Below are positions 4,001-43,583 of a stretch of DNA of 64,000 bases, in pieces. Source of the stretch: an uncultured Gammaproteobacteria bacterium. GTDB taxonomy: Bacteria > Patescibacteriota > Patescibacteriia > 2-12-FULL-60-25. Location of the stretch: NCBI GenBank assembly GCA_964437285.1, contig CAYTGF010000002.1, forward strand, positions 3,543-67,542, given 5' to 3'. The notes below the pieces were generated by a model. The model made no database searches. It was given only the letters and a program-made list of their open reading frames with translations, and had not been told where the DNA came from. How positions within the stretch are numbered: position 1 is the first letter of the stretch; each line of letters starts with the position of its first letter. Both the position numbers and the translations under genes were made by a program.

Positions 4001-5584
4001 ATGACTTTTATCACTATTTTTCTGCCGGTGCTTGGTTTAGGTTTGGGGGCGGTTCTTGGCTATGCTTGGCGTACGCACCTCGCAACCCAAGGAAAAACGG
4101 CTGTCGAACAGCAAGCGATCGCGATACTTCGGGATGCAGAACAAAAACACAGCGAACGCCTTCAATCCATGGAGGCGCAACTTAAAGATGCCGAGGGAAA
4201 ACACCAGGATATCTTGCAACGCGCAAAAGAAAAAGCGATCAAGATTCTTGAAGAAGCTCGTCTTGAAGAAAAGCAGGCGATTGAGACCCTAAAACAGCAA
4301 CAGGCTGAGCTCGTGGCACGCGAACAAGAATTTGCCCAAAAACTCATCGATATTGATACCGAACGAAGGCAGTTCGACACTCTCAAACAGACCATCGAAA
4401 CCCAACGCGCAGAAGTGGAACGGCTTCAAATACAATGGCAAGAGGAGCTCGTGCGCGTAGCCGGACTCAGTCGAGAAGTCGCTCTGGAGCAACTCCTGAA
4501 AGATATTGAAAGCGAACAGGCCGATACACTCCTTGGACGCATTCGAAAACTCGAAAGTCACGCAAGCGAAGAGCTCGAGCTTCGAGCGAAGAACCTGCTC
4601 GCCACCATGATTCAACGACAGGCTGCCTCCCATGTCGCAGAAACGACGACGACCTACGTGGAGCTCCCAACAGATGAAATGAAGGGGAGAATTATTGGTC
4701 GCGAGGGGCGCAATATTAAAGCGATCGAACTTCTGACGGGCTGTGAACTGATTATTGACGAGAGCCCGAATCTCGTGACGGTTTCCGGATTTTCGCCCAT
4801 TCGTCGCCAAGTCGCCAAACGCGCCCTGGAAAAACTCATCGCGGATGGACGCATTCATCCTGGCCGTATTGAAGAGTTCGTGGACGAAGCGAAAAAAGAT
4901 CTTGCTATTGATATTAAAAAAGCCGGTGAAGACGCCCTTTTTCAACTCGGTATTTCTCCTGCAGAAATCGATCCAAAGTTTACGCAGATTCTTGGTCGCA
5001 TGAAATTCCGTACGAGCTACGGACAAAATGCGCTCTTACACTCCCTGGAGGTCGCGCAGCTCTCGGTCGCCCTCGCAGAAGAGCTCGGTGCGGACGTAGA
5101 AATTTGTCGTAAGGGCGGACTCTTTCATGATATCGGCAAAGCCGTCGATCATGACTTACAAGGCAGTCACCCAGAACTTGGGTATCAGATCATGAAGAAG
5201 TACGGATTCTCAGAAGACATCTGCTACCAATCCATCGGCCACCACGAAGACAAGCCACGGACGCTCGAGGCGATTATTGTAAAAGCCGCCGACGCGATCT
5301 CCGGAGCGCGTCCCGGTGCTCGAAAAGACTCTCTTGAGTTTTATATCAAGCGTCTCGAAGGACTCGAGAAAACCGCGAAGTCCTTCGAAGGGGTCGAGAA
5401 AGTCTATGCGATTCAAGCCGGTCGTGAAATTCGCGTCTTCGTCAATCCTAAGCAAGTGGATGATCTCGTCGCCGAAAAACTCGCCCGCGCGATCGCCAAG
5501 AAAATCGAAAGCGAACTCAAATACCCGGGCGAAATTCGCGTGACCCTCATCCGCGAAACACGGGTAGTAGAGGTGGCACGATAA
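4001..5584 (+). CDS. rny: ribonuclease Y
   Basis: N-terminal TM helix, long coiled coil, KH motif GRIIGREGRNIKAIE, HD motif LFHDIGKA..GHHE. An alternative upstream ATG is at 3953. Confidence 0.93.
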   Translation: MTFITIFLPVLGLGLGAVLGYAWRTHLATQGKTAVEQQAIAILRDAEQKHSERLQSMEAQLKDAEGKHQDILQRAKEKAIKILEEARLEEKQAIETLKQQQAELVAREQEFAQKLIDIDTERRQFDTLKQTIETQRAEVERLQIQWQEELVRVAGLSREVALEQLLKDIESEQADTLLGRIRKLESHASEELELRAKNLLATMIQRQAASHVAETTTTYVELPTDEMKGRIIGREGRNIKAIELLTGCELIIDESPNLVTVSGFSPIRRQVAKRALEKLIADGRIHPGRIEEFVDEAKKDLAIDIKKAGEDALFQLGISPAEIDPKFTQILGRMKFRTSYGQNALLHSLEVAQLSVALAEELGADVEICRKGGLFHDIGKAVDHDLQGSHPELGYQIMKKYGFSEDICYQSIGHHEDKPRTLEAIIVKAADAISGARPGARKDSLEFYIKRLEGLEKTAKSFEGVEKVYAIQAGREIRVFVNPKQVDDLVAEKLARAIAKKIESELKYPGEIRVTLIRETRVVEVAR

Positions 5585-5611: not shown

Positions 5612-5684
5612 ATACCAAGACCAGATTGACAACGACAACTATCAAATACATACTCTCAGAGGAGCGAACAAGAAAGGACGGAAC

Positions 5685-5897
5685 ATGAAGGACATACCCC
5701 TGCTCCCACTGTTTCTCATCACGATGTGTGGAGTCATGCTCGTCGATACCTTCGTATTCGAGCTACTCGAAATACCGCCCTCCACCGACACCTCCCTGCT
5801 CTACGTCGGCACGCTGCAGGGTGCCGCGTGCATGTTTGCAGTTACTTCCGTATGGCTGTTTATCGTGAATCGGAGGCGTCGACAGCCACCGAAGTAA
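5685..5897 (+). CDS. small hypothetical membrane protein
   Basis: 70 aa, two hydrophobic segments, C-terminal RRRRQPPK. TTGACA at about 5627 lies upstream. Confidence 0.4.
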   Translation: MKDIPLLPLFLITMCGVMLVDTFVFELLEIPPSTDTSLLYVGTLQGAACMFAVTSVWLFIVNRRRRQPPK

Positions 5898-5923
5898 CCT
5901 TATCCTGTGTCACACAGGTTTTT

Positions 5924-6421
5924 TTATAACCACGCAGTATACGGAATAGCACTCGGCCGGAGTGGAATCTTCCCTTCTTTTATATCTTGCTTGTCGATCC
6001 AGATAGCGCGCCAAGTTTTCCCAAATTCTTTAATCAAGATCTCTTCTTGTTCTAATAACGCGATTTTTACGAGTTTTCCTCGGAAGATAAAGATCACTTG
6101 ATGACGTGTATTCCCCTGAAATGGGAACACATGCTCGCACACCGTCAAAAACTCAATATCTTCAAGCTCACTCCCAAGCTCTTCCCGAATCTCGCGAATA
6201 ACAGCGTCGCGAGCATATTCTCCTTTTTCGATTGCTCCCCCCAAAAAACGAACGTAGCGTTCATGAGTTTCCGGATGAAAAAACTCTTGCATCAGCCAGC
6301 GTCCCTGATGCTCGATCAGACAAAACGCCTTTACTTCGATCCCGTCTGGATACCAGTACATAGGAAGATGAGTGTAGCCAAAGAGAAGTCGCTTTACCAG
6401 ATAAGACATACCCCACCCCAA
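5924..6421 (-). CDS. NUDIX hydrolase
   Basis: Nudix box GGAIEKGEYARDAVIREIREELG. Confidence 0.85.
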   Translation of the reverse strand: MGWGMSYLVKRLLFGYTHLPMYWYPDGIEVKAFCLIEHQGRWLMQEFFHPETHERYVRFLGGAIEKGEYARDAVIREIREELGSELEDIEFLTVCEHVFPFQGNTRHQVIFIFRGKLVKIALLEQEEILIKEFGKTWRAIWIDKQDIKEGKIPLRPSAIPYTAWL

Positions 6422-7508: not shown

Positions 7509-8261
7509 ATGCGTCCACTTTCAGAGCTGCTGCAGGATGGAATCAAGGCGGTTCGACTCATCCGATCGATTCCGCCTACGCACCGACCCACCGTCTACAC
7601 CGTCGAGGGAACCACCACAACTGTTCGGCCTCACGCGGATTTCACGATCTACGCGTTCACCAGGACCTACTGGGAGACCATCTCGGAAGAAGCGCTCTTC
7701 CTCGTGACCAACGACGGGCTCTTCTTCCCTCTCGACGTGCGGGACGTGCCCCTCATCAACAACCGCGTTCCGCTCATTGGCGAGTACGTGGATCGGTTGT
7801 GTGGGAGACAACCGAAGCACGCCCAACTCGAGGATGAGCGACTGAACGATGGCTCGTACGCGGCGGTAAGCTTCAAGCGATCCCTGATGCGCATTCCCGA
7901 GAAGCTCCTTCCCACCGACAAGCGCGATCACTTGATCACCGCTCTGAACACGACCCAGAGCCAGGTACGCGCGCAAACGAGTCCCGTTGGTGTGGGCGAT
8001 GCGTTCAAGCGTCTCCTTGCCGCTCGTATCGAGCAGTGGAGCGCGCTTCACCCAGCGGACAGTCAGCGTCGTACGGTCACGGCATGGTTCAACGCCAAGG
8101 ATCATCTCATCGCATTTGGACTCTCATGGCGGTCGTCCCAGCGGTTCGAGGCTCCGATGCATCATCTCGTACTCGTCGGCGGTCAGCGCTATCGCGGCGT
8201 GAAGGCAGAATCCCTCCTCAACACCACCACGCTCACCAACATGAGGTACGTTCATGCGTAA
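7509..8261 (+). CDS. hypothetical protein
   Basis: GGAGG 6 nt upstream of ATG 7509. 250 aa, GC-rich. Confidence 0.6.
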   Translation: MRPLSELLQDGIKAVRLIRSIPPTHRPTVYTVEGTTTTVRPHADFTIYAFTRTYWETISEEALFLVTNDGLFFPLDVRDVPLINNRVPLIGEYVDRLCGRQPKHAQLEDERLNDGSYAAVSFKRSLMRIPEKLLPTDKRDHLITALNTTQSQVRAQTSPVGVGDAFKRLLAARIEQWSALHPADSQRRTVTAWFNAKDHLIAFGLSWRSSQRFEAPMHHLVLVGGQRYRGVKAESLLNTTTLTNMRYVHA

Positions 8262-9156
8262 CCCATCCACCTACAGGCGTTTCAGGGAGCAGACCCTGGA
8301 CGCAGCCAGCCGCCTCTACATCAGTTTCCTCGAGAAGACGGGAGGGTACGGAATCCTCCTCGTCGCTCAGGTCGGTGCCCCGGCACTTGTCCTGCAGAAG
8401 TGTTACGGGGAACGGTACGCCCCCACAGAGGTCAAGGTCCTGGAAGGCGCAACCTTTGACGAGCGCTCTCCCACTTGGCACACTCTTGTGTTCACCGCGC
8501 GCATCGGTGACAAGGAGACGCGGCAGGAGATCGTGCTCGATCGCGTCCGGCGAACAATGGAGTCTTCGCAAGGAGATCCTCCCTTGTTCACCCTTCCGTA
8601 CGTGCACGAGGGGTCCGGGGTGATTGGCCTGATCGCAATGGGGATCATCCCCGCGGCGGTGCTCGGTGCGGTTGCAGGACTACCGATCTACGGGGTACGT
8701 CAGCTCTACTTCAAAGCGCTCGAAGCCGCCGCTCGCAGGCACGGCCTCGATGCGGCCAAGTACGCCCTCGCCAAGGCACTCGCTCCCCACCTCGCCACCG
8801 ACGTACACGAGCTCCTCCTCGAAGCTCTCTGCGCTCGTCAGAAGGACGAGGATGGTGAGCCGAGTCCCATCATCGGAGGGGTCATGGTGTTCGCAGATTT
8901 TCTTCGCACCGCACACCGCGTCCAGGTCTCTGGGTTCTATCCGTCAGATCCTCCCGACTACCAATGGTGGCGCGATGACCGCCTCATCGCCACCGCGACC
9001 TGGAATCCGGACAGGAAGGAGAACGCCTCCCCCACGGACTACCTCTTCGAGCCAACGAGAGACCTCTTCGAGTGGAGCGAGCCCGAACCCACCCTGACCC
9101 CCAGGGAGGTGGAGATCCTCCTCACATGCTTCTCCTCCACGAAGCCCCTCCCTTGA
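8254..9156 (+). CDS. hypothetical protein with a central TM segment
   Basis: 300 aa. The ATG overlaps the upstream stop (ATGCGTAA, 8-nt overlap). Hydrophobic GVIGLIAMGIIPAAVLGAVAGLPIYG. Confidence 0.6.
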   Translation: MRNPSTYRRFREQTLDAASRLYISFLEKTGGYGILLVAQVGAPALVLQKCYGERYAPTEVKVLEGATFDERSPTWHTLVFTARIGDKETRQEIVLDRVRRTMESSQGDPPLFTLPYVHEGSGVIGLIAMGIIPAAVLGAVAGLPIYGVRQLYFKALEAAARRHGLDAAKYALAKALAPHLATDVHELLLEALCARQKDEDGEPSPIIGGVMVFADFLRTAHRVQVSGFYPSDPPDYQWWRDDRLIATATWNPDRKENASPTDYLFEPTRDLFEWSEPEPTLTPREVEILLTCFSSTKPLP

Positions 9157-15187: not shown

Positions 15188-15264
15188 GCACCCGTAGCTC
15201 AGCTGGATAGAGTACTTCCCTCCGAAGGAAGGGGTCAGACGTTCGAATCGTCTCGGGTGCACCA
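15188..15264 (+). tRNA. tRNA-Arg (anticodon CCG), copy 1
   Basis: GCACCCG-TA-GCTC..GAGT-A-CTTCC-CTCCGAA-GGAAG..AGACG-TTCGAAT-CGTCT-CGGGTGC-ACCA. Confidence 0.9.
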
Positions 15265-17649: not shown

Positions 17650-17726
17650 GCACCCGTAGCTCAGCTGGATAGAGCACTTCCCTCCGAAGGAAGGGGTCAG
17701 ACGTTCAAATCGTCTCGGGTGCACCA
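17650..17726 (+). tRNA. tRNA-Arg (anticodon CCG), copy 2
   Basis: Differs from copy 1 at two positions (D-stem T/C, T-loop G/A). The similar terminator hairpin is also duplicated. Confidence 0.9.
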
Positions 17727-28983: not shown

Positions 28984-29155
28984 ATAAGGAATCTTTTCTT
29001 ATTTTTTATAGCTCGCTTCGCTCGCTATAGGTTTATACACGCATGAGATACAAGCGACCATTATTAAAAGATGCCTGGCACGTGCCAGGCACCTTGAAAC
29101 CACAACATGAAGCCGAGCGAAGTGAGGCTTCAGAAAAAAGAAAAAAGATTCCTTA
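28984..29155. mobile_element. MITE-like non-coding element, copy A
   Basis: TIRs ATAAGGAATCTTTTCTT / AAGAAAAAAGATTCCTTA. Hairpins at 29007-29029 and 29109-29131. Central palindrome TGCCTGGCAC|GTGCCAGGCA at 29072-29091. Confidence 0.6.
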
Positions 29156-29181
29156 ACGAGCTTATTCGAAGTTTCACCGCG

Positions 29182-29190
29182 TGCTATACT
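29182..29190 (+). promoter_or_regulatory. extended -10 (TGcTATACT) 6 nt upstream of the tkt ATG (leaderless geometry)
   Basis: TGCTATACT-TCGTTC-ATG. Confidence 0.45.
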
Positions 29191-29196
29191 TCGTTC

Positions 29197-30051
29197 ATGC
29201 GCTCTTTATCGATTCAAGAACTCGAACTCATGGCGAATACGATTCGTCAGGATATTATTAAAGCGCTTGTTCGCGCCACGAGTGGGCATTCTGCGGGACC
29301 GCTTGGCATGGCGGACATTTTCACTGCCCTCTACTTCCATATTTTACATATTGATCCAAAGAACCCAACGCTTCCGGATCGCGATCGTCTCGTACTCTCA
29401 AACGCACACATCTGCCCGGTATTGTATGCAACCCTGGCTCGGCGTGGGTTTTGCTCCGTGGATGCATTTCATCAAACCCTTCGCGCCTTCGGATCGCCAT
29501 TCCAAGGACATTCAAACAACCACTTTGGCATTGGCATAGAAACATGCGGCGGCCCACTCGGACAAGGAATCTCGCAGGCCGTAGGGATGGCGTACGCTGC
29601 AAAAATGGATCGCGCTCGCTGGCGAACCTACTGCCTGATGGGTGATGGCGAACTCAATGAGGGCCAATGCTGGGAAGCGTTTTTGTTCGCAGGAAAAGCG
29701 AAGCTCCATCAACTTACCGTTATTATTGATCGAAACAATATTCAAATCGATGGCTTTACCGAAAGCGTTATGCCCCTCGAACCACTCGAAGAAAAACTCG
29801 AAGCGTTCGGGTTTCACGTGATCGAGGTCGATGGTCATAACATGCGCAGAGTGATTGATGCACTAGAAGAAGCTCAGGCGGTGTATGAACGTCCTACCGC
29901 TATTATCGCGCACACCATCCCAGGGAAGGGCGTGAGTTTTATGGAGGCCGATTTTACCTGGCACGGAAAACCTCCCGATGACGCCCAAGCACGACGTGCC
30001 CTCCACGAACTGCGAACCCTTGCCGGCGCCATAGAATCCGAACACGAATAA
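29197..30051 (+). CDS. transketolase, N-terminal (TPP-binding) subunit
   Basis: GHSAGPLGMADIF, GDGELNEGQCWEA motifs. The track start at 29107 lies inside element A. Confidence 0.9.
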   Translation: MRSLSIQELELMANTIRQDIIKALVRATSGHSAGPLGMADIFTALYFHILHIDPKNPTLPDRDRLVLSNAHICPVLYATLARRGFCSVDAFHQTLRAFGSPFQGHSNNHFGIGIETCGGPLGQGISQAVGMAYAAKMDRARWRTYCLMGDGELNEGQCWEAFLFAGKAKLHQLTVIIDRNNIQIDGFTESVMPLEPLEEKLEAFGFHVIEVDGHNMRRVIDALEEAQAVYERPTAIIAHTIPGKGVSFMEADFTWHGKPPDDAQARRALHELRTLAGAIESEHE

Positions 30052-30052
30052 T

Positions 30053-31021
30053 ATGCTGCATCCCGACCTTTTTACCGAACGCCAACAGTCCATTCCAACG
30101 CGAAATGGCTATGGTGACGCCCTTCTCCAACTTGGTGATGACGAACGAGTTGTTGTGTTAACGGCTGACCTTGCAGAATCTACACGCGTTCACGAGTTTC
30201 GTGAAAAGTACCCTGAGCAGTTCATTGAATGCGGCGTATCAGAACAGAACATGGTGGGCATGGCCGCCGGTCTCGCGCTCAGTGGAAAGATTCCGTTCGT
30301 AAGTTCGTATGCAACCTTTATGCCCGGCCGCACCTGGGACCAGGTGCGCGTTTCCGTTTGCTACACCAATGCAAACGTGAAGCTGGTTGGAGCGCATGCT
30401 GGGCTATCCGTCGGACCAGATGGCGCTACACATCAAGCTCTTGAGGATATCGCCATTACCCGCGTTCTACCAAATATTGTCGTGATCGTTCCCTGTGATT
30501 ATCACGAAACCAAGCAAGCAACCCTCGCGATGGCGGGCATGGAAGGCCCTGCATATATTCGGTTTTCGCGTGAAAAAAGCCCCCTTATTCTCGCAGAAGA
30601 AGCGCCGTTTATTATTGGCAAGCACGTAGTGTTGCGTCCTGGAACAGACGTGACGATTGTCGCGTGCGGGCCGCTTGCATACGAAGCGCTCGAAGCCGCA
30701 CGTCAGCTCGAAAAACGAGGTGTAGACGCGGAAGTGATCAACGCTTCAACTCTCAAACCCTTTGATGAAAAAACCCTCCTAAAAAGCGCCAAGAAAACCG
30801 GCTGTATCGTGACCGTGGAAGAACATCAAATCCACGGGGGACTCTTTGGAGCCGTGAGCGAGATTCTTGCTCGAGCGCTCCCAACCCCTGTCGAGGCTAT
30901 CGCGATGCCTGATAGCTTTGGCGAATCCGGCGAGCCCGCCGAACTTCTTCATGCCTACGGCCTCACGAGTGCAGAAATCGTAAAAGCCGCAAAAAAAGCC
31001 ATTTCCAGACGGGATACTTGA
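30053..31021 (+). CDS. transketolase, C-terminal (pyrimidine-binding) subunit
   Basis: FIECGVSEQNMVGMAAGLA, GPDGATHQALEDIA motifs. Starts 2 nt after the N-subunit stop. Confidence 0.9.
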   Translation: MLHPDLFTERQQSIPTRNGYGDALLQLGDDERVVVLTADLAESTRVHEFREKYPEQFIECGVSEQNMVGMAAGLALSGKIPFVSSYATFMPGRTWDQVRVSVCYTNANVKLVGAHAGLSVGPDGATHQALEDIAITRVLPNIVVIVPCDYHETKQATLAMAGMEGPAYIRFSREKSPLILAEEAPFIIGKHVVLRPGTDVTIVACGPLAYEALEAARQLEKRGVDAEVINASTLKPFDEKTLLKSAKKTGCIVTVEEHQIHGGLFGAVSEILARALPTPVEAIAMPDSFGESGEPAELLHAYGLTSAEIVKAAKKAISRRDT

Positions 31022-31549: not shown

Positions 31550-31568
31550 CTTCAAAAAAATCTCATCA

Positions 31569-31787
31569 TAAGGAATCTTTTCTTATTTTTCACCGCCTCG
31601 CTTCGCTCGGCTGTGATTATTTACTCTAACGCAACCACCCTCTCAAACCAGCCAAGCAAAGCGAGGCTAAAAAAGCATTTCACCTCCCAATTAAACCAGC
31701 CGAGCGAAGGCGTTATGGCATGCGCCATTCTTTCTTCAACCCAGCCGAGCGTAGCGAGGCTGTAAAGAAAGAAAAGATTATTCCTTA
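31569..31787. mobile_element. MITE-like non-coding element, copy B
   Basis: TIRs TAAGGAATCTTTTCTT / AAGAAAAGATTATTCCTTA. One forward and three reverse GAGCGAAG-type units. The right end overlaps the last codons and stop of 31778..32365. Confidence 0.55.
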
Positions 31788-32365
31788 TTCGGTTGGTGCT
31801 CGAAAACGTGGAGAGCAACGTCAGCGAGCATACGAACCATTAAAAACAAGAACATCGCATTTCGTACAACCGGAAATAGCACCAGCGTTCCATGCATCGG
31901 TAAGATTCGCGTATACGGATTGGAAAGTTGATTTGTTTTTTGTTCTCGATGATAAAAAAACGCATGAAGATGATGCAGAAAAAACATGACCGCCCCCACC
32001 CCCATCCAAAGATACTCCGCCGATGGCGGCATCCCAAAGAACTCACGTATGAACAAGAAATACACAAGGTGGAACCCTCCGTAATGCAGAATAAACACCC
32101 CCACGGATACCATATTTCCCAAGAATCGAGTCATAGAGTCCAGTACTCCATATCCATACTCCGTCTTGGTTTCCCCTATCAGAATCCGCACTATCCCTAC
32201 CACACCGATAGCCACGCTCTGCCCCCAATACACCCATAATGCCGTAGCGAAATCCCATTTTTGCGTCAGAGCAAACAAAATCACTATGATATTCACCCCG
32301 ATCAACGTCCAAAGGGAGGGATCCTGGAACCAAGCCCTTTTCTGCACAAGAGATAACATATCCAA
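31778..32365 (-). CDS. hypothetical multi-pass membrane protein
   Basis: 195 aa, AT-rich, 5-6 hydrophobic segments. Confidence 0.6.
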   Translation of the reverse strand: MDMLSLVQKRAWFQDPSLWTLIGVNIIVILFALTQKWDFATALWVYWGQSVAIGVVGIVRILIGETKTEYGYGVLDSMTRFLGNMVSVGVFILHYGGFHLVYFLFIREFFGMPPSAEYLWMGVGAVMFFLHHLHAFFYHREQKTNQLSNPYTRILPMHGTLVLFPVVRNAMFLFLMVRMLADVALHVFEHQPNKE

Positions 32366-32515: not shown

Positions 32516-32540
32516 ACACCCTCAAAGGAGGGTGTTTTTT
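32516..32540 (+). terminator. intrinsic terminator
   Basis: ACACCCTC-AAAG-GAGGGTGT hairpin plus T-run. Confidence 0.75.
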
Positions 32541-32553
32541 GATTCCCCCAATC

Positions 32554-32582
32554 TTGACAAGTCCTCCGCTCCATGATAGCGT
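32554..32582 (+). promoter_or_regulatory. sigma70-type promoter
   Basis: TTGACA (32554-32559), 17-nt spacer, TAGCGT. Confidence 0.45.
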
Positions 32583-32613
32583 TTGCGAGCTCAAAGACGA
32601 GCAAGGAGGCCTC

Positions 32614-33054
32614 ATGCAAACTGATCACGCGTCCAACACGCCTACCCAAGCGCTCCGCTCCTTCTTTCGGCTCGAGGACGCGACCAAGAACGCCCTCATC
32701 CAGATGGCGATGGCTCACGAGCTCGTCTACACGGGACCGAATGGAGAGCCCCTCCTGACGGCGGGTGCGCGCAGCCGGCTCCTCAACATCGGCTTCACGC
32801 GCAGCCTCCGCTCGATCGCACAACGACGCGACGGGAACCCGTTCTCCTCAACGGAGAGACTCTCTCCGGAGTCGACCATGCACACGATCTACAAGCGGCT
32901 CGTGTCTGATCAGCCGAATGCGATCCAGGAGCTGTTCACGACGCACCTCGAAGATCTCCGCGCCTATCTCGAAGCCTCTGCGCTCCCTCGCACTACATTC
33001 CTCTTCGTCTGCAGCCTCTTCGTCATCGACGCGCAGAGCTCGCAACCTTCCTGA
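32614..33054 (+). CDS. hypothetical protein
   Basis: AAGGAGG 5 nt upstream of ATG 32614. 146 aa, GC-rich, terminator follows. Confidence 0.5.
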   Translation: MQTDHASNTPTQALRSFFRLEDATKNALIQMAMAHELVYTGPNGEPLLTAGARSRLLNIGFTRSLRSIAQRRDGNPFSSTERLSPESTMHTIYKRLVSDQPNAIQELFTTHLEDLRAYLEASALPRTTFLFVCSLFVIDAQSSQPS

Positions 33055-33061
33055 CCCCCTC

Positions 33062-33086
33062 CCCCGGTGATCCACCGGGGTTTTTT
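33062..33086 (+). terminator. intrinsic terminator
   Basis: CCCCGGTG-ATC-CACCGGGG hairpin plus T6. Confidence 0.75.
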
Positions 33087-33087
33087 A

Positions 33088-33315
33088 TAAGGAATCTATG
33101 TTTTTTTCATGGCTCGCTTCGCTCGCCATGGGTTTATAGAGAAAACAGCTCGTATAGAGAAGGTGGTCCGGAGTGAACTCCGGACCATTTTAAAGATAGC
33201 TAAACAAGAGACGAACGAAGTGAGTCTCTTATAAAAAAGCACGATTCCTTAGATGTGTGGATACCCGAGAGACAAGCGAAGCGAGTCTCTCAAGAAAAAG
33301 AAAAGAGATTCCTTA
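33088..33315. mobile_element. MITE-like non-coding element, copy C
   Basis: TIRs TAAGGAATCTATGTTTTT / AAGAAAAGAGATTCCTTA. Forward hairpin at 33108-33130, central GGTCCGGAG hairpin at 33164-33187, reverse hairpins at 33207-33229 and 33267-33291. Confidence 0.6.
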
Positions 33316-33365
33316 TTCTGAACGAAAAAACAAAAACACCCCGAAGTCCTTCGAGATGTTTTTTG

Positions 33366-33441
33366 TGGAGCCGTTGACCGGGATTGAACCGGTGACCTCA
33401 TCCTTACCATGGATGTGCTCTACCAGCTGAGCTACAACGGC
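33366..33441 (-). tRNA. tRNA-Thr (anticodon GGT)
   Basis: GCCGTTG-TA-GCTCAGCTGGTAGAGC-A-CATCC-ATGGTAA-GGATG..ACCGG-TTCAATC-CCGGT-CAACGGC-TCCA. Confidence 0.9.
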
Positions 33442-33501
33442 GTAAAAAGATGTGAGCAGACGAGCCGCAAAAGCCTATCAATTCCCCTCTTGATCGTCAA
33501 A

Positions 33502-33743
33502 TAAGGAGTTTTTCTATTTTTTTATGGCTCGCTTCGCTCGCCATGGGTTTATGTGGAAAAGGTGCCAGGCACGTGCCTGGCACGTGCCTGGCACCTTTTC
33601 CACATGAGAAACGAGGCAAGCGATACAGATATACGAGAGACGAACGAAGTGAGTCTCTCAAAAAAGAAACGAGAGTCCTTAGCTGTATGGATACACAAAA
33701 GACGAGCGAAGCGAGGCTCTCAAAATAGAAAGAGAATTCCTTA
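33502..33743. mobile_element. MITE-like non-coding element, copy D
   Basis: TIRs TAAGGAGTTTTTCTATTTT / AAAATAGAAAGAGAATTCCTTA. Forward hairpin at 33524-33544, 55-nt palindrome, reverse hairpin at 33635-33659 plus a further unit near 33700. Confidence 0.6.
33551..33605. repeat. 55-nt perfect palindrome
   Basis: ATGTGGAAAAGGTGCCAGGCACGTGCC-T-GGCACGTGCCTGGCACCTTTTCCACAT. 27-nt arms checked base by base. Confidence 0.9.
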
Positions 33744-33772
33744 TAAAAAAACCCGGTGAGAGATCACCGGGG
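33744..33772 (-). terminator. intrinsic terminator of the kinase-like/vWA cassette
   Basis: Minus strand reads CCCGGTGA-TCTC-TCACCGGG plus a T-run. Confidence 0.75.
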
Positions 33773-33778
33773 AAAGAG

Positions 33779-34771
33779 TCAGCGCGAGGCTTCGCGGCGC
33801 TTGCGGCGCTCGTGCGGAGTGCCGCTTGAGGGGGTCACGGGCTGTGCGGGGCGCTCGGGGGCGCCGCGGAGGATCGAGTGGGCGTAGGCCTCGATCGGCA
33901 GGATGATGCGCGTAGCGACGTCGCCTGAACGACCGAGCCTGAGCAGTCCCTGCTGGAGCTCTCCGAGGCTTGTGACCGCTCCGGTCTGAATGGCCGTCAG
34001 CGCACCAGCGATATCGCAGATGTCATCATATCTCTGCGCGACGATGACACGCTCACCGAGCACCTCCCGCCAGGAATGCTCGCACTCACGGGCACGCGAC
34101 GCATCGGGAATGATGCAAAAGATGTCCCACGTCTGCGAGGCACGCTCGAAGATCGTCTTCACGGTCTCGGTCGTATCAGAGATGTCTCCAAACACGACCG
34201 ACATGTCCCTGGGGCGGCATGACGGGAAGAGGTTGTCGTCACCCGTGATGAAGGCGACCCCCTTCTGTCCACGCCTCTCGAAGCAGTCGATCGACGTTCT
34301 GGAGGCGAGCATCTCCGCGAAGAGGTGGTAGGACTCTCCGCCGTTCCCTCCGCCATTGCAGAAATCGACGACCGCCATGCCCGTCAACGTACGGTTCATG
34401 AGCTCCGCCGTTGATTCGAACTGCCCGACCTGAAAGGCGTTGCGACCATCCGTTGCGACGTCCCCAATGCCGGCGAAGAGCGGCTGGGGGTCCTGAACCC
34501 CGAGCGTCACGAGCACCTGCATGAAGTTCGGGAGCGACTTCTGCGCCATATTGATGGGAATGTGTTCCATCGATCCGGTAAGGTCGAGACCGAAGGCGAT
34601 CGCGATTGAGCGCGGATGCTCGGCGCTGTCACGACTCTCACGCACCTTCATGCGGTACGCGAGCATGGTCTTCGAGACCTCGGTCTCCTTGAACACCTCA
34701 CGTGCCGGCGCTCGAGCCTGGCTCGTGGTGATCTTCTGATGCGCTTCGTGACTGTAGGACCCGTATCCCAT
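33779..34771 (-). CDS. von Willebrand factor A (vWA) domain protein
   Basis: 330 aa. MIDAS-type motif IAIAFGLDLTGSM (DxTxS), later GDVATDG and ITGDD acidic motifs. GAGAGG upstream. Confidence 0.75.
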   Translation of the reverse strand: MGYGSYSHEAHQKITTSQARAPAREVFKETEVSKTMLAYRMKVRESRDSAEHPRSIAIAFGLDLTGSMEHIPINMAQKSLPNFMQVLVTLGVQDPQPLFAGIGDVATDGRNAFQVGQFESTAELMNRTLTGMAVVDFCNGGGNGGESYHLFAEMLASRTSIDCFERRGQKGVAFITGDDNLFPSCRPRDMSVVFGDISDTTETVKTIFERASQTWDIFCIIPDASRARECEHSWREVLGERVIVAQRYDDICDIAGALTAIQTGAVTSLGELQQGLLRLGRSGDVATRIILPIEAYAHSILRGAPERPAQPVTPSSGTPHERRKRREASR

Positions 34772-34810
34772 GGTGGACCTCTCTTCTCTGCGTGGTGGAT
34801 GATCCAGTGG

Positions 34811-36472
34811 TCAGGAGTGACGCGCTGGCAAGTGGAAGGGAATGTAGCGAGGCTTCCCGTGAGCGGCTTGTACCGCTTGTCGGTAGGGCAAGAATACGTC
34901 GTTGTAGGTATTGGACACGCTCGGGAGCGTATCGTACCCAGCGAGAGAGCGTAGATAGTCAGAGAACGGATCTCGCTCAAGGCGCTCAAGCACACCCGAC
35001 CGAGTTTCTTCCCCCGTCAGCGCCCAGAGCAAGCACCGCGCGGCCATAGTGACGTCGTGGGCACGGGTGGCTTCCTCCCCATCAAGAATCTCTTTTGGGT
35101 AGAAGGCCTTCCTGTGCGTCACGTGCAGATCGATCGGCTGTCCAGCGCTTGCAGCGTAGCTATGGTCGATGATCGTGGCGTAGTGCATGAAGGGGTGCAG
35201 GAGCACGTGCTCGGGAACGATCGCTCCGTGAACGACACCGAGTTGGTGCATCCAGGCGATCTCCTCAAACATGCGCCGACCAATCCAAGCGACGGCGTGT
35301 GAGGGCAGACCCTCAGGATACTCCGTCAGAGCCTCCGCAAGGTTCCAGTCATACCCAGGCTTTGCCACAAACACGAGCGCCTGTACGGACTCCCCGGTGT
35401 CACCGCGTAGGAGCTCTCCCCGATCTGCCACTCGGCGGATCCGGCGACGATAGACGCTCGTGGCTTCCGAGGTCGTGTCTGCCCCCAGTCGCTCGAGCAT
35501 CCGCGCTTCTCGTGCAAATCGCTCCGGAGCCAACGGGTCATCCGCGAGCTTGATGATCACGCTCAGCGGCGGATTGTAGAGACGATGGGCACGAAAGACC
35601 TGCGACTTCTCGCCTCTACCAACCCTCCCCTCCACGAGGTACTCGACCCCGTTCAGGGTCCAGGTCGGCGCGTTGGGCTGCTCGCGGCGCAGGAGAGCGG
35701 CGCGCAAAGTGTGTTCGCGGCCGTTCCATTGCTCACGCTGTACACCAAAGGCAACTGACTGCAGTACCAGCGCTCGAATTGCCGCAAGATCCGCAAAACC
35801 GTAGTCCTGCGGCTTGCACAAGAACTCAGGAACCTCGTCAAATGAACGCAGGCACCGAACGTGCCCAGGTCCATGAAAGAGATACGCAAGCAGCACGTAG
35901 AGCGACGCGGAGAGCTCTGTGAGCTGTCGCTCGAGCTCTGGGTGCACACGCGCATCTGCCCAGCGTCGAATCCCCTCGTCCGTGAGTGGAATCGTGGCGC
36001 CAGGAACCGTGCTCACATCCTTTCCAGCTTGTGGATCGGTCAGCTCACCCGTAGTCCACGCAATCTTGCGGAGACATATCGGAGGAAGTACGACCACACC
36101 AACGTGACAGACGGGGCACTGGTTTCCCTCTTCGAATTCCCAGGTGCGACCACCGACATTCGCGAGCATCAGCTCCTGACAGGACGAACACTGGCGCGTT
36201 TCCGGCGAGACCTTGGCGAGCAGCTGCGCTACTTCGCGCAGTCGCACGAGCGACTCCGCCTCGAGATGTTCGAGCTTGAGCGCATCGCGCAGCTCGTCCT
36301 CCCCAACCAGTGCCAGTCGACCAAAGGTCAGCTCTTCGCCGAAGAGCCGACGATAGAGACGGTTCGCTTGGCGAGCATCCGCTGACGTCAACAGGCGAGC
36401 GAGCAGTCGCTCGATCCCCTGCGTAAACGTCGACGGGATGAGAACAGAACGGATATCCAACGCGTGCGCCAT
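34811..36472 (-). CDS. zinc-ribbon plus protein-kinase-like protein with non-canonical catalytic loop
   Basis: CSSCQ-x18-CPVCH. G-loop GRGEKSQVF, VIIK, EARMLE, HGAIVPEH in place of HRDLKPxN, DHS in place of DFG, DVTMAARCLLWALTG. Start at ATG 36472; the ORF extends to 36538. Confidence 0.65.
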   Translation of the reverse strand: MAHALDIRSVLIPSTFTQGIERLLARLLTSADARQANRLYRRLFGEELTFGRLALVGEDELRDALKLEHLEAESLVRLREVAQLLAKVSPETRQCSSCQELMLANVGGRTWEFEEGNQCPVCHVGVVVLPPICLRKIAWTTGELTDPQAGKDVSTVPGATIPLTDEGIRRWADARVHPELERQLTELSASLYVLLAYLFHGPGHVRCLRSFDEVPEFLCKPQDYGFADLAAIRALVLQSVAFGVQREQWNGREHTLRAALLRREQPNAPTWTLNGVEYLVEGRVGRGEKSQVFRAHRLYNPPLSVIIKLADDPLAPERFAREARMLERLGADTTSEATSVYRRRIRRVADRGELLRGDTGESVQALVFVAKPGYDWNLAEALTEYPEGLPSHAVAWIGRRMFEEIAWMHQLGVVHGAIVPEHVLLHPFMHYATIIDHSYAASAGQPIDLHVTHRKAFYPKEILDGEEATRAHDVTMAARCLLWALTGEETRSGVLERLERDPFSDYLRSLAGYDTLPSVSNTYNDVFLPYRQAVQAAHGKPRYIPFHLPARHS

Positions 36473-36553
36473 GGAAGACCTCGCAGTTCTTTCTGTATAG
36501 GGGTGAAAGGAACGATCGTTTGTGTGAAAAATACACACCTAGACGATACTCGT

Positions 36554-36582
36554 TTTATACCAAAAATCTTCCCTCCTGTCAA
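36554..36582 (-). promoter_or_regulatory. sigma70-type promoter of the kinase-like/vWA cassette
   Basis: Minus strand reads TTGACA, 17-nt spacer ending in TGG, TATAAA. The -35 overlaps the stop region of the upstream TPR gene. Confidence 0.6.
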
Positions 36583-40441: not shown

Positions 40442-41788
40442 TTAGACGAGACGTTCAGCGATCCAACCCGGCACTTCGTCGATAGACACACGAACCTGCT
40501 CCATAGAATCACGATCGCGGATAGTGACGGTGCGTTGCGCGACAGAATCGAAGTCGACCGTGATACACCATGGCGTACCGATTTCATCCTGACGGCGATA
40601 GCGTTTCCCAATTGATCCAGACTCATCGTATTCAATCATCCAACCTCGCTTGCGCAACATGGCAGCGAGTTCTTTCGCGAGTTCTGGCTGACCATCTTTT
40701 TTCTGAAGCGGGAACACCGCCGCCTTCACCGGCGCGAGACGTGGCGGCAAGCGCAACACCATGCGTGGCTCCGTTTCTCCACTCACGGCTTCCGCTTCGT
40801 CCACATCGAAATGCGCGGCGAGCACCGCCAATACTGTACGCGTCAATCCCCAGGATGGCTCAATAACGTGCGGAATAAAGCGCTCCCCCGTTTCCGGATC
40901 AAGCCAACGCAAGTCCTCCTTGGAGTGTTCTTGATGGCGAGAGAGGTCGTAGTCTGTGCGATTTGCGAGACCGTAGAGCTCTTTCGTGCCGAATGGGTAC
41001 GCAAACTCCACATCGATCGTGCGCTTCGAGTAAAAGGCGCGATCAGCATCAGGGATCTCGTGATAGACAACCTTGTCCGCAGGCAACTTCAACACGTCGT
41101 GGACCCAGACCTTCATCTGTGCGAGCCAGTGTTCGAACATCTCGTCAGCAAGCGCCGGTGGAACGAAGTACTCGATTTCCATTTGCTCGAATTCGCGGGT
41201 GCGGAAAATGAAGTTCCCTGGCGTGATTTCGTTGCGGAACGCCTTGCCGACCTGCGCGATGCCGAATGGAAGCTTTTTACGCATCGTGTCACGAACATTC
41301 TTGAAGGCCGTGAACATACCCGCAGCCGTTTCAGGACGAAGGTAGGCCGTCGCGGTCGCGTCTTCGTTTACACCAATAAACGTCTTCAGCATCAGGTTGA
41401 AGTTGCGAACATCGGTAAATTCGCCCCCACATTCTGGACAGCTCATCTCCTGTATATCTTTGCCCGAGGCTTCCATGAGGTGATCGGCGCGGAAGCGCTT
41501 TTTACACTTCTTACAGTCGACGAGTGGATCGGTAAACGTCGCGAGGTGTCCCGACGCCTCCCAGACCTTCGGGTTCTGAACAACAGGCGTATCAATTCCC
41601 ATCATATCATCGCGTTCGCGTACAAACATCTGCCACCAGGCGTCGCGGATGTTATTTTTGAGTTCGGTGCCGTATGGACCGTAATCCCAGGCGTTCGCAA
41701 ATCCCCCGTAAATATCGGAGTCCGGATACACAAATCCGCGTCGCTTGCAGAGCGAAACGAGCAACTCCATTGTTTTGGCCGATTCCAT
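40442..41788 (-). CDS. glyQS: glycine--tRNA ligase (homodimeric type)
   Basis: RRGFVYPDSDIYGGFANAWDYGPYG N-terminus, class II motifs, anticodon-binding C-terminus. Confidence 0.95.
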   Translation of the reverse strand: MESAKTMELLVSLCKRRGFVYPDSDIYGGFANAWDYGPYGTELKNNIRDAWWQMFVRERDDMMGIDTPVVQNPKVWEASGHLATFTDPLVDCKKCKKRFRADHLMEASGKDIQEMSCPECGGEFTDVRNFNLMLKTFIGVNEDATATAYLRPETAAGMFTAFKNVRDTMRKKLPFGIAQVGKAFRNEITPGNFIFRTREFEQMEIEYFVPPALADEMFEHWLAQMKVWVHDVLKLPADKVVYHEIPDADRAFYSKRTIDVEFAYPFGTKELYGLANRTDYDLSRHQEHSKEDLRWLDPETGERFIPHVIEPSWGLTRTVLAVLAAHFDVDEAEAVSGETEPRMVLRLPPRLAPVKAAVFPLQKKDGQPELAKELAAMLRKRGWMIEYDESGSIGKRYRRQDEIGTPWCITVDFDSVAQRTVTIRDRDSMEQVRVSIDEVPGWIAERLV

Positions 41789-41843
41789 AGTTCTCGCACT
41801 ATTTCATATCAGGGAAAAAATGAAAAGAGGATCCAGCCCCAGG

Positions 41844-41872
41844 TTGACAAAAACAAAAAAATACGGTATACG
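41844..41872 (+). promoter_or_regulatory. sigma70-type promoter
   Basis: TTGACA (41844-41849), 17-nt spacer, TATACG. Confidence 0.5.
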
Positions 41873-41906
41873 AGGGAAGCGCTTCGACCCCCCCACAGGA
41901 GTCCTC

Positions 41907-43583
41907 ATGAGCACGGAACCAAGTCTCTCGAACAAGCTTGAAGTGCCGAGCTGGTACAAGCAGCTTCTGCTCCCCAGCGTACGCGACGGCAAGCATCACA
42001 TATTTCTCCTCACGGGAGAGGTAGGCGTCCCGAACAGCGACGGCGCCATTGCCCAAGGCGATGCTACCCTGCCACTCGAGAAATTTCTCGAGCACGCCCT
42101 GCAGTCACGACCGGTCCTGGTCATCATCGATAGTCAAGGCAAGGTGCGCGTGACCATGACAAAGGAAGGTCAGCAGGACCACCAGGCACGGGAAGCTCTT
42201 AAGCGGCTCGGCCCCGAGCCAAACCTGGGCCGCCACGCCTGGGATCTCAAGAATCTGCTCGAAAAAGGCAACCGCGTCGCCCTCGTTCTGATAGAGGTCG
42301 ACGAAGCCCTCGCCATGCCCCGCTGCTCACACGGTGAAGCGCAACTGTTCTGGGAATACCTCGGTCAGATCGCGTCCAGCCAAGCCATTCGTCGCAATGG
42401 CGGACTCGTCCTCCTGCAGAGCTCACAGCGCAATCTCCCTCTCACCCAGCACACCACCCTCGCTCAGATGCGTGGCGACCTCAGGAACCACATCGAGTGC
42501 ATCCCGGTCGAGCGACCGACGTTCGAAGAACGGCTTCGGTGCTTCCGACTCTGCCTCCCTCGTGAAGACGAGTCGTTCTGTCGGCAGTTCGCCCTGGATT
42601 CCCATGGGTGGCCGCTCGATAAGCTCGACCAGATGCTGCAAACCGCTCAGCACTCAACGAAGGCAGCGAGCGCACGAGAAGCTATCATCCACCGCCTCTA
42701 CTCCTACGAAGAAGGCCTCGCCCACACGAACTTCTTCGCCGAGCGTCCCTCGACGCCGACTCACGCACCGACTCTGATTCACGGACATCCACACGTGGCT
42801 CGCTACGCGCAGACTGTTCGTGAACACATGAAAGCTACCACACGATACCAACCGCACCTACTGCGGATCGTGGGGACTCCAGGCAACGGCAAGGCGCTTG
42901 CCGCCGAGGCGATCGCCTGCGAACTCGGCGCTCAATTCGTGCGACTGAAGCCCTCCGCGCTTCGCGATGCCCTCGATACCATCGACCGTCGTGTGCAGCT
43001 GCGAGACACGCTCATCGCTCTCGCTCCGATCGTGGTCTTCACTGGTGAGAACGTGAAGCCTCTTCAGGAGCTCTTCACCGGGTACAAGCTGAGTCAGCCC
43101 ATCGTCATCGTCAGCGGCGTATCAAGTCTCGCTACGGTGCAATCGCCGCACTTCATGGACGGGATCGACGAATGTCTCGTACTCCCTGCTTTCAGCCTGG
43201 AAGAACGCGCTGACGTGATCGAGGCTTACTGCAAGCAGCAACAGCTCCCGATCCCCGCTGAGCCGACGCTGCGCGAGATCGCTGGCCTGACGGAGGGGTA
43301 CACCTACAAGGAGATCCTGTTGGCACTCCAAGACCGTCCCTGGCTCCTTCAACCGAGGGACGCATGGGACAGTGTTACGGCCGCCAAGCGTCAGCTGGCA
43401 CCGGCAAGAACTCTCCAGACGGACGCGGACATGCTCACGCTCTACAGCCTCTTTCACACGAAGGAGCCTGAACACTTTCCGCAGCTCGCCCACGTGCTCG
43501 TACGAGCGATTCGTGAGCGACACGAGTTCACTCCCAAAATCACTGCCGCCCTCAAGACGCTCGACGATCGTCTCCCCCGCTAG
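41907..43583 (+). CDS. tandem AAA+-like protein with degenerate nucleotide-binding motifs
   Basis: AGGAG upstream of ATG 41907. Module 1: HHIFLLTGEVGVPNSDG, VALVLIEVDEA, IPVERPTFEERL. Module 2: LLRIVGTPGNGKALAAEAIA, PIVVFTGEN, LVLPAFSLEERADVI. Confidence 0.55.
   Translation: MSTEPSLSNKLEVPSWYKQLLLPSVRDGKHHIFLLTGEVGVPNSDGAIAQGDATLPLEKFLEHALQSRPVLVIIDSQGKVRVTMTKEGQQDHQAREALKRLGPEPNLGRHAWDLKNLLEKGNRVALVLIEVDEALAMPRCSHGEAQLFWEYLGQIASSQAIRRNGGLVLLQSSQRNLPLTQHTTLAQMRGDLRNHIECIPVERPTFEERLRCFRLCLPREDESFCRQFALDSHGWPLDKLDQMLQTAQHSTKAASAREAIIHRLYSYEEGLAHTNFFAERPSTPTHAPTLIHGHPHVARYAQTVREHMKATTRYQPHLLRIVGTPGNGKALAAEAIACELGAQFVRLKPSALRDALDTIDRRVQLRDTLIALAPIVVFTGENVKPLQELFTGYKLSQPIVIVSGVSSLATVQSPHFMDGIDECLVLPAFSLEERADVIEAYCKQQQLPIPAEPTLREIAGLTEGYTYKEILLALQDRPWLLQPRDAWDSVTAAKRQLAPARTLQTDADMLTLYSLFHTKEPEHFPQLAHVLVRAIRERHEFTPKITAALKTLDDRLPR

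Follow-up and report, generated by a model that had tools for sequence, protein, structure and literature searches.

The pairing of a kinase fold with a von Willebrand factor A (vWA) protein is known from the TerY-P triad, in which a TerY-like vWA protein occurs together with a PP2C phosphatase and a Ser/Thr kinase that bears a C-terminal zinc ribbon (Anantharaman et al., 2012; Gao et al., 2020; summarised in PMC10542128). A 64-kb stretch of contig CAYTGF010000002.1, the whole of which is referred to here as the window, contains two adjacent minus-strand genes that invite comparison with this triad. As in TerY-P, a vWA protein with a metal ion-dependent adhesion site (MIDAS) is paired with a zinc-ribbon protein of kinase fold in a small, self-contained operon of patchy distribution. 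The resemblance is one of fold composition only, and each defining feature that was tested fails. No PP2C accompanies the pair, and the third gene of the module to which it belongs is PurA-like; the kinase lacks catalytic residues, and its ribbon (residues 95-122) lies before the kinase domain (266-553); and the vWA protein goes unrecognised by the vWA and TerY models of Pfam and PADLOC. An initial annotation, made by reading the letters of the window, had framed the pair in terms of TerY-P-type systems, and this framing has to be given up: the pair represents a separate family set that is unnamed in curated libraries. Both genes belong to a widespread, uncharacterised module that comprises a pseudokinase, a vWA protein, and a PurA-like, predicted GTP-dependent enzyme. 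The pair in the window is a derived form of this module without the PurA-like gene, because its relatives form a triad in which that gene is the third member. The two genes are as follows.

34811-36472, minus strand: gene 1, an open reading frame (ORF) with its stop codon included, 553 amino acids (aa) from the ATG; a long-form zinc-ribbon/kinase-fold pseudokinase
33779-34771, minus strand: gene 2, an ORF with its stop codon included, 330 aa; a cytoplasmic vWA-fold protein

The closest real relatives of the pair are unstudied phage and bacterial triads. Bixzunavirus genomes carry homologues of both window genes (phrog_3043 and phrog_2971) in the same order, with HGA in the catalytic loop of the kinase-like protein. 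Unlike gene 1, the Bixzunavirus kinase-like protein is a short form (376 aa) that lacks the long N-terminal region and has Asn at the N171 position, and unlike the window, the phage locus has a PurA-like gene downstream. A further comparison lies with nucleotide-binding pseudokinases that serve as allosteric scaffolds, such as STRADalpha and JAK JH2. Judged by its residues, the gene 1 product would resemble these in keeping the beta3 Lys, the alphaC Glu, and the G-loop while having lost the catalytic base; it differs from them in that its partner is a vWA protein and not another kinase.

A Conserved Three-Gene Module in Bacteria and Phages

The module emerged from a vWA-seeded scan of one genome per species, which returned at least 497 loci; gene order was counted in the best 80, using only loci with enough flanking sequence (76 upstream, 71 downstream, and 67 on both sides). 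The vWA gene directly follows a kinase-like gene on the same strand in 74 of 76 loci, a PurA-like gene lies downstream in 67 of 71, and complete triads of kinase-like, vWA, and PurA-like genes are found at 63 of the 67 assessable loci. The first distant loci to be inspected, from Leptospira, Anaerolineales, and two metagenomic contigs, all show a kinase-like gene, a vWA gene, and then an Adenylsucc_synt (PF00709) gene. An independent metagenome scan seeded with the kinase-like protein and built on 8 sequences recovers the same triad, sometimes permuted to vWA-PurA-kinase. The genomic linkage of the pseudokinase and vWA families, which the initial annotation could read from a single locus, is thus seen from both seeds. 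Carriers span Myxococcota, Chloroflexota, Burkholderiales, Verrucomicrobiota (including Akkermansia muciniphila), Acidobacteriota, Planctomycetota, and Patescibacteria, and cultured carriers include Akkermansia, Myxococcus, Variovorax, and Leptospira. Across the 80 loci there is no fourth conserved neighbour beyond genus-level synteny. The TPR gene upstream of the window pair was considered as a fourth member and rejected, its synteny being genus-level only and its protein evolving at the rate of a housekeeping gene.

The module extends to phages. By tblastn, about 200 Bixzunavirus (cluster C1) mycobacteriophages carry the full triad in the same order, and in phage Mangeria the products gp261, gp262, and gp264 are annotated as "serine/threonine kinase," "hypothetical protein" (the vWA protein), and "PurA-like adenylosuccinate synthetase." In Rhizobium and Vibrio phages, about 150-210 kb in size, the vWA and PurA-like genes form a pair and the kinase-like gene is absent. 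Full-text literature searches found no published description of the module and no experimental characterisation of the phage genes; a paper on phage Vi01 contains both terms, for unlinked genes. Neither the vWA protein nor the system as a whole has a model in Pfam, NCBIfam, or PADLOC.

Several variants of the locus were noted (numbers beginning with L denote related loci or contigs). In Rhizobium phage RHph_Y65 (L009), a HIRAN-domain protein (5679-5996) occupies the place of the kinase-like gene, and NAD-salvage-type genes (phosphoribosyltransferase, NMNAT/NUDIX) lie upstream. The flanks of L001 include a NUDIX/NrtR-type regulator and an isochorismatase-family gene (313-981 and 7961-8722). These NAD-type flanks of RHph_Y65 and L001 may be coincidence. 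The vWA gene is duplicated in Myxococcus and Corallococcus (L022, L023, L063, and L069), where the order is kinase-vWA-PurA-vWA; in L001, where it is kinase-vWA-vWA-PurA; and in L041 and L096, where it is kinase-vWA-vWA without a PurA-like gene.

The PurA-Like Third Gene

The third gene of the module, absent from the window, is not a housekeeping purA, a candidate identity that was rejected on score and on active-site substitutions. Its product reaches 212 bits against the purA equivalog model, with a cut-off of 402, and 63 against phage PurZ, with a cut-off of 300. When 78 unique members were aligned to E. coli PurA, the residues kept in common with the PurA/PurZ enzymes were found to include Asp13 and Lys16 of the P-loop, His41, Gln224, Thr239, and the guanine-specificity residue Asp333. 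Unlike PurA, the family has its own Trp, Gln, and Cys residues at the aspartate-loop and IMP (inosine monophosphate)-phosphate ligands: Thr300/Thr301 are replaced by Trp/Gln in 77 and 78 of the 78 members, respectively, and Thr129 by Cys in 74, while Asn38 is replaced by Gln in all 78. Of the arginines, Arg143 and Arg305 are missing, the latter by deletion, and Arg303 varies; Lys331 has become His or Cys. In the E. coli enzyme, we take Thr129 and Arg143 to bind the 5'-phosphate of IMP and Thr301, Arg303, and Arg305 to bind aspartate. Because these aspartate and IMP-phosphate ligands are replaced, the same chemistry would be expected with different substrates, and we infer a GTP-dependent enzyme that probably uses PurA chemistry on substrates other than IMP and aspartate. 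The PurA-like protein has no match among PADLOC models.

Gene 1 Encodes a Conserved Pseudokinase

The gene 1 product is a long-form member of a family that joins a zinc ribbon to a protein kinase fold, and its parts can be laid out along the gene.

36203-36472, minus strand: N-terminal helical region, residues 1-90, with five predicted helices; long form only, absent from short forms
36053-36202, minus strand: four-Cys zinc ribbon, residues 91-140 (C95, C98, C119, C122), with beta hairpins in the model
35678-36052, minus strand: helical linker, residues 141-265, with helices at 165-264; long form only
34814-35677, minus strand: kinase fold, residues 266-553; G-loop, K308, and E322 kept, catalytic loop disabled
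35207-35230, minus strand: catalytic loop HGAIVPEH, residues 415-422; active kinases have HRDLKPEN at the aligned positions

The kinase-like fold that had been aligned by eye is borne out by structure. An AlphaFold2 model built with 30 homologues in the alignment has a predicted local distance difference test score (pLDDT) of 92.0 and a predicted template modelling score (pTM) of 0.84, and a Foldseek search with it returns at least 1994 kinase matches in the PDB at E<=0.001, with a top E of about 1e-9 and target template modelling scores of 0.5-0.69. Sequence profiles respond more faintly. The Pfam model Pkinase (PF00069) gives 18.6 bits (E = 1.3e-3) and does not reach its gathering score of 31.7, and phrog_3043, annotated "kinase," gives E = 3.9e-13. 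The family counts 610 representatives at E<=1e-30, most of them short forms of about 320-345 aa with an N-terminal zinc ribbon and the kinase fold. Residues 1-262 of gene 1 match nothing significant in PDB sequence profiles or Pfam. The ribbon yields only weak rubredoxin/zinc-ribbon matches; its four Cys are invariant in 30 long-form sequences, and the short forms also carry an N-terminal CxxC...CxxC. In the linker region, W139, D152, P162, W171, R246, and E247 are invariant. An alternative GTG-extended ORF would encode 575 aa.

Of the details given in the initial annotation, every motif is present as quoted: in gene 1, GRGEKSQVF (residues 285-293), VIIK (305-308), EARMLE (322-327), HGAIVPEH, DHS (436-438), and DVTMAARCLLWALTG (473-487), and in gene 2, DLTGSM. 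The two CxxC pairs of the ribbon are likewise there, with a spacing that had been miscounted: the arrangement is C95xxC98-x20-C119xxC122 and not x18.

The reading of gene 1 as a catalytically dead kinase extends to the family as a whole. HMMER alignments to CK2alpha and CDKL1 place HGAIVPEH over HRDxKPxN, and on this alignment the catalytic Asp is replaced by Ala, the loop Lys by Val, and the Asn by His. A census of 233 non-identical relatives shows the nucleotide pocket to be preserved, with the beta3 Lys K308 conserved in 219, the alphaC Glu E322 in 214, and the G-loop Gly287 in 217. The His of the HRD motif (H415) is kept in 231. At the position of the HRD Asp (417), Ala is found in 167 relatives, Asp in 27, Gly and Ser in 11 each, and Asn in 8; position 422, that of the Asn, is His in 224. 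The DFG Asp position (436) is Gly in 160 and Asp in 69, the window protein being among those with Asp (D436 in DHS). A shifted catalytic Asp was considered and rejected, as there is none within the loop, and E421, which stands at the E170 position, is not conserved. Four His residues, H409, H415, H422, and H430, form a near-invariant cluster, each present in at least 219 of the 233. Gene 1 thus keeps the elements of a nucleotide pocket (G-loop glycines, beta3 Lys, and alphaC Glu) without the residues for phosphotransfer. Since neither a non-kinase fold nor a shifted Asp was found, gene 1 is a conserved pseudokinase-type protein.

Gene 2 Encodes a vWA Protein With an Invariant MIDAS Loop

Two segments of the gene 2 product stand out.

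34739-34771, minus strand: N-terminal peptide MGYGSYSHEAH, residues 1-11, invariant across the family
34568-34585, minus strand: MIDAS loop DLTGSM, residues 63-68, following the strand at residues 56-63

The vWA assignment made in the initial annotation is upheld by the fold and by the MIDAS loop. The AlphaFold2 model of gene 2 (pLDDT 91.6) is matched by Foldseek at a probability of 1.0 to integrin beta-I, vWF A3, the CD11b I-domain, and the vWA domain of the SpaC adhesin, and it also matches viral VWFA proteins. Sequence libraries are nearly silent. There is no match at E<=1 in Pfam (VWA, VWA_2, and others), NCBIfam, or PADLOC, and the sole match in a curated library is to phrog_2971, a family without an assigned function (E = 7e-26). 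The family itself is large, with more than 1650 clusters. Among 219 unique relatives, the MIDAS loop is conserved as D63 in 218, T65 in 206 (Ser in 12), G66 in 216, S67 in 218, and M68 in 218, and a downstream acidic ligand, D178, which follows strand beta4 (171-176), is present in 218. The MIDAS site is intact and invariant and, from these residues, is predicted to bind a metal.

Conservation is not confined to the MIDAS loop. In the same 219 relatives, the N-terminus retains G2 in 217, G4 in 214, Y6 in 208, S7 in 194, and H11 in 209, and an MGxGx[YWF] pattern is kept in the phage vWA homologues. A RESRD..HP motif and about 15 further polar residues are also invariant. Gene 2 of the window carries the MGxGxYS, RESRD, DxTGSM, and TGDE signatures of the module.

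A PurA-Less Pair in the Window Lineage

The initial annotation had proposed a distinct dyad. That the window holds a two-gene pair stands; among its relatives, triads make up 63 of the 67 loci assessable on both sides. A hidden Markov model (HMM) from 6 PurA-like proteins finds no PurA-like ORF in the window at E<=10, and in L003 and L127 the pair is likewise not followed by a PurA-like gene. The next-closest vWA relatives, L130, L128, and L129 (43-51% identity), keep long-form triads, a pattern most simply explained if the clade of the window has lost or relocated the PurA-like gene.

The affiliation of this clade is indicated by the glycyl-tRNA synthetase (GlyRS) of the window, whose best named matches, at 71-73% identity, are from Candidatus Uhrbacteria (Patescibacteria, Candidate Phyla Radiation). 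The L012/L003 and L077 contigs are labelled "uncultured Gammaproteobacteria bacterium"; they carry the long-form module and a Patescibacteria-type synteny. The GlyRS of the L003 contig (P0287) sits among Uhrbacteria/Patescibacteria sequences, so the label looks doubtful.

The window, L003, and L127 share the gene order GlyRS-M16 peptidase-TIM-TPR-kinase-like-vWA. L092, a short contig of a close strain, shows the TIM-TPR-kinase-like-vWA part of it, and L094, a 2.9-kb contig, contains the pair only. Between the window and L003, the two proteins of the pair are 39% and 49% identical, compared with 68-77% for GlyRS, M16, TIM, and TPR. Against L094, nonsynonymous over synonymous divergence (dN/dS) stands at 0.19/2.1 in gene 1 and at 0.265/1.17 in gene 2, well below 1, and all family-invariant residues are kept in the window proteins. 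The pair is under purifying selection at a fixed housekeeping locus and is not decaying.

Transcription Signals and Surroundings of the Pair

The two genes are bracketed by signals of their own.

36554-36582, minus strand: promoter-like site, with the -35 hexamer TTGACA at 36582-36577, a 17-nt spacer, and the -10 hexamer TATAAA at 36559-36554
36522-36536, minus strand: palindrome GTGT-N7-ACAC (GTGTATTTTTCACAC), about 20 nt downstream of the -10 hexamer; candidate operator or hairpin of the 5' untranslated region
33745-33771, minus strand: intrinsic terminator CCCGGTGA-TCTC-TCACCGGG followed by T7, with an 8-bp GC-rich stem at 33771-33752

Here the initial annotation proved accurate. The two co-directional ORFs on the minus strand lie where it had put them, the TTGACA-N17-TATAAA promoter can be read directly and is conserved in relatives, the strong terminator is present with its GC-rich 8-bp stem and T7, and the GC richness and the tRNA-Thr repeat neighbourhood that it reported, detailed below, are both real. 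The promoter is the single exact match to TTGACA-N17-TATAAA in the window; if up to one mismatch is tolerated, the count rises to 2, where 0.07 would be expected. A stricter scan rule, which calls for T at position 6 of the -10 hexamer, did not list the site. The spacer ends in TGG, giving an extended -10, and the -35 hexamer shares nucleotides with the stop codon of the TPR gene upstream. In an upstream alignment of the window, L092, L003, L127, and L130, CTTGAC and TGnTAnnnA are invariant, as are the half-sites of the GTGT-N7-ACAC palindrome, despite only 39-51% protein identity in the coding regions. The palindrome is a perfect 7+1+7 in L003 (about 6232-6246) and L127 (about 5230-5244), where a repressor operator seems likelier than an RNA hairpin.

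Within the cassette, the genes are 39 nt apart, with a GAGAGG-type ribosome-binding site. The terminator has an RNA fold energy of -21.7 kcal/mol (z = -2.0), and similar hairpins with T-runs lie 3' of the vWA gene in L092, L094, L003, and L127. The TPR gene of L003 and L127 has its own terminator ahead of the cassette promoter, which supports the earlier description of an autonomous cassette with its own promoter and terminator. The cassette is one transcription unit that encodes two cytoplasmic partner proteins.

The guanine plus cytosine (GC) content of the pair exceeds that of its surroundings, at 61.0% for gene 1 (third codon positions, GC3, 0.68) and 62.7% for gene 2 (GC3 0.79), compared with a window average of 54.3% and 46-54% in neighbouring genes. 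The excess is also seen in L003 (71% against 64%). The neighbours of the pair are TPR, TIM, M16, GlyRS, tRNA, DUF6498, and transketolase genes, and tRNA-Thr(GGT) (33366-33441, minus strand) lies just downstream with a cluster of short repeats around it. This tRNA gene falls in 640 nt (33096-33745) between two convergent terminators, a region that also contains four copies of an element of about 62 nt with an internal hairpin (GAGAGAC...GTCTCTC), a partial duplication of about 415-430 nt, and a perfect 27-nt palindrome at 33551-33605. Repeats related to these elements reappear at 31568-31790. The two terminators, that of orf171 (33062-33095, plus strand) and that of gene 2 (33736-33771, minus strand), face each other across the tRNA-Thr region and are near-identical, flanks included (CCCGGTGA..CACCGGG TTTTTTATAAGGAAT), with 96% identity over 23 nt. 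orf171 itself (32539-33054, plus strand) has no family match and shares the high GC of the cassette (60.5%, GC3 0.76), as does a 612-aa ORF at 41745-43583 (plus strand; 59.4%, GC3 0.70) with a weak AAA ATPase match. As a counterpart of the 171-aa methyltransferase that lies 3' of the vWA gene in L003, orf171 was rejected, the sequences being unrelated.

Two further features of the window lie apart from the pair. The transketolase at 29107-31021 (plus strand) is split into separate N-terminal (314 aa) and C-terminal (322 aa) genes, with a cupredoxin-domain protein and a Big_7-domain protein encoded upstream. Two tRNA-Arg(CCG) genes (15188-15264 and 17650-17726), 2.4 kb apart, are identical at 75 of 77 positions, have similar 3' flanks, and bracket two minus-strand genes (389 and 318 aa) without significant family match; the tRNA pair could be a duplication or mark the ends of an inserted element.

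Possible Functions of the Pair

We lean toward the view that the pair consists of a nucleotide- or ligand-binding pseudokinase that regulates a vWA hub and that it derives from the triad module. The identity and evolutionary parts of this picture are well supported, and its mechanism is weakly supported. The vWA protein would be the hub, because its sole companion is the PurA-like protein in some phages and the kinase-like protein in the window. The pseudokinase, instead of phosphorylating, may be a switch operated by nucleotide or ligand binding, one that attaches to the vWA protein and controls it, with the zinc ribbon and the long-form N-terminal domains as a possible extra input. In the full module, this switch would gate, or be acted on by, a PurA-like ligase with substrates other than IMP and aspartate, and in Patescibacteria the pair may need no further partner, or may have one whose gene lies at another place in the genome. 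Several points weigh against this picture. The near-invariant His cluster, with K308 and E322, leaves room for an unconventional catalytic activity of gene 1, and 27 of the 233 relatives still have Asp at the HRD position. With its many invariant polar residues, gene 2 resembles an enzyme or a protein with a small-molecule site rather than a passive adaptor. A plain regulatory role leaves unexplained both the faster divergence of the pair and its high GC relative to its neighbours; both would fit a conflict function as well, and if a PurA-like gene is present elsewhere in the genome, the dyad may not be functionally distinct. A bolder version, in which the full module is a nucleotide-protein conjugation or signalling system of bacteria and large phages, strikes us as very doubtful. 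Here, the PurA-like enzyme would keep the GTP-driven chemistry of activating an oxo group and adding an amine without the aspartate and IMP-phosphate sites, the vWA protein would supply the amine or acceptor, either as its invariant N-terminal glycine, exposed by Met processing, or as a ligand bound at its MIDAS site, and the dead kinase would serve as a nucleotide-sensing gate. What would remain in Patescibacteria is a stripped-down pair of sensor and hub, re-wired to another output.

An alternative possibility, unlikely though conceivable, is that of an anti-phage or conflict module in which a kinase-fold sensor is joined to a vWA effector or adaptor, the PurA-like enzyme of full versions makes or destroys a nucleotide, and the phage copies are counter-measures. 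The pair has indeed diverged about twice as far as its neighbours, from which it differs in GC, and it lies beside a tRNA and repeat region; its homologues occur in three phage groups, and its patchy distribution across phyla with unrelated flanks suggests horizontal movement. The locus, however, is a housekeeping one and is syntenic in at least 3 species, no known defence gene is conspicuous among the loci read for Pfam context, and no flanking gene recurs across the 80 loci. The best curated matches of gene 1 are to defence kinases (PADLOC PD-T4-6 at 2.6e-8, MkoA at 1.6e-6, and PglW at 2.1e-5; NCBIfam MADS6 at 1.3e-7), but they cover the generic kinase core only and fall far below cut-offs (31.9 bits for PD-T4-6, 30.6 against 460 for MADS6, and 17.1 against 990 for PglW), with the catalytic residues missing; PD-T4-6, MADS6, and PglW were accordingly rejected as families for gene 1. 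Neither gene 2 nor the PurA-like protein matches any PADLOC model. Gene 1 as an active atypical enzyme, either a kinase with a non-canonical base or an AMPylase-type transferase that would employ the His cluster together with K308 and E322, is a doubtful proposition. Some proteins classed as pseudokinases, such as SelO, do have other transferase activities; the pocket residues K308, E322, and Gly287 and the four His are conserved in the numbers given above, and the invariant Tyr6 and Ser7 at the vWA N-terminus could supply a target. Set against this, the catalytic Asp, loop Lys, and Asn are all replaced, the DFG Asp gives way to Gly in most of the family, and the matches in Pfam, NCBIfam, and PDB sequences include no SelO-like or other atypical family. 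It is highly improbable that the pair is a TerY-P-type phospho-signalling module minus its PP2C. A Ser/Thr-kinase fold with a zinc ribbon and a vWA protein are common to both at the level of folds, but the ribbon is N-terminal, the kinase is disabled, gene 2 matches no Pfam vWA or PADLOC model, and the PADLOC matches listed for gene 1 include no TerY-P model. The initial annotation was right that a PP2C is lacking, as none is annotated near the window pair or among the related loci that were read for Pfam context, and in third place more than 100 related loci have a PurA-like gene. Finally, the suggestion that the pair is a decaying, non-functional remnant after loss of the PurA-like gene is almost certainly wrong. 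The window does lack the gene, as do the downstream flanks of the pair in L003 and L127, and L003 has Ala at the alphaC Glu position; yet the frames are intact in five related contigs, the family-invariant residues are all retained in the window proteins, dN/dS is about 0.1-0.2, and the promoter and terminator are conserved.

Implications

The module to which the pair belongs is present in at least several hundred bacterial species and in well-studied mycobacteriophages. It brings together a conserved pseudokinase, a type of protein that is rare and little studied in bacteria, and a PurA paralogue whose substrate-binding residues have been systematically replaced. That the pseudokinase-vWA pair has been retained in the very small genomes of Patescibacteria argues that it has a function of its own. 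Ultimately, the occurrence of the module in cultured hosts and in phages makes its function directly testable.

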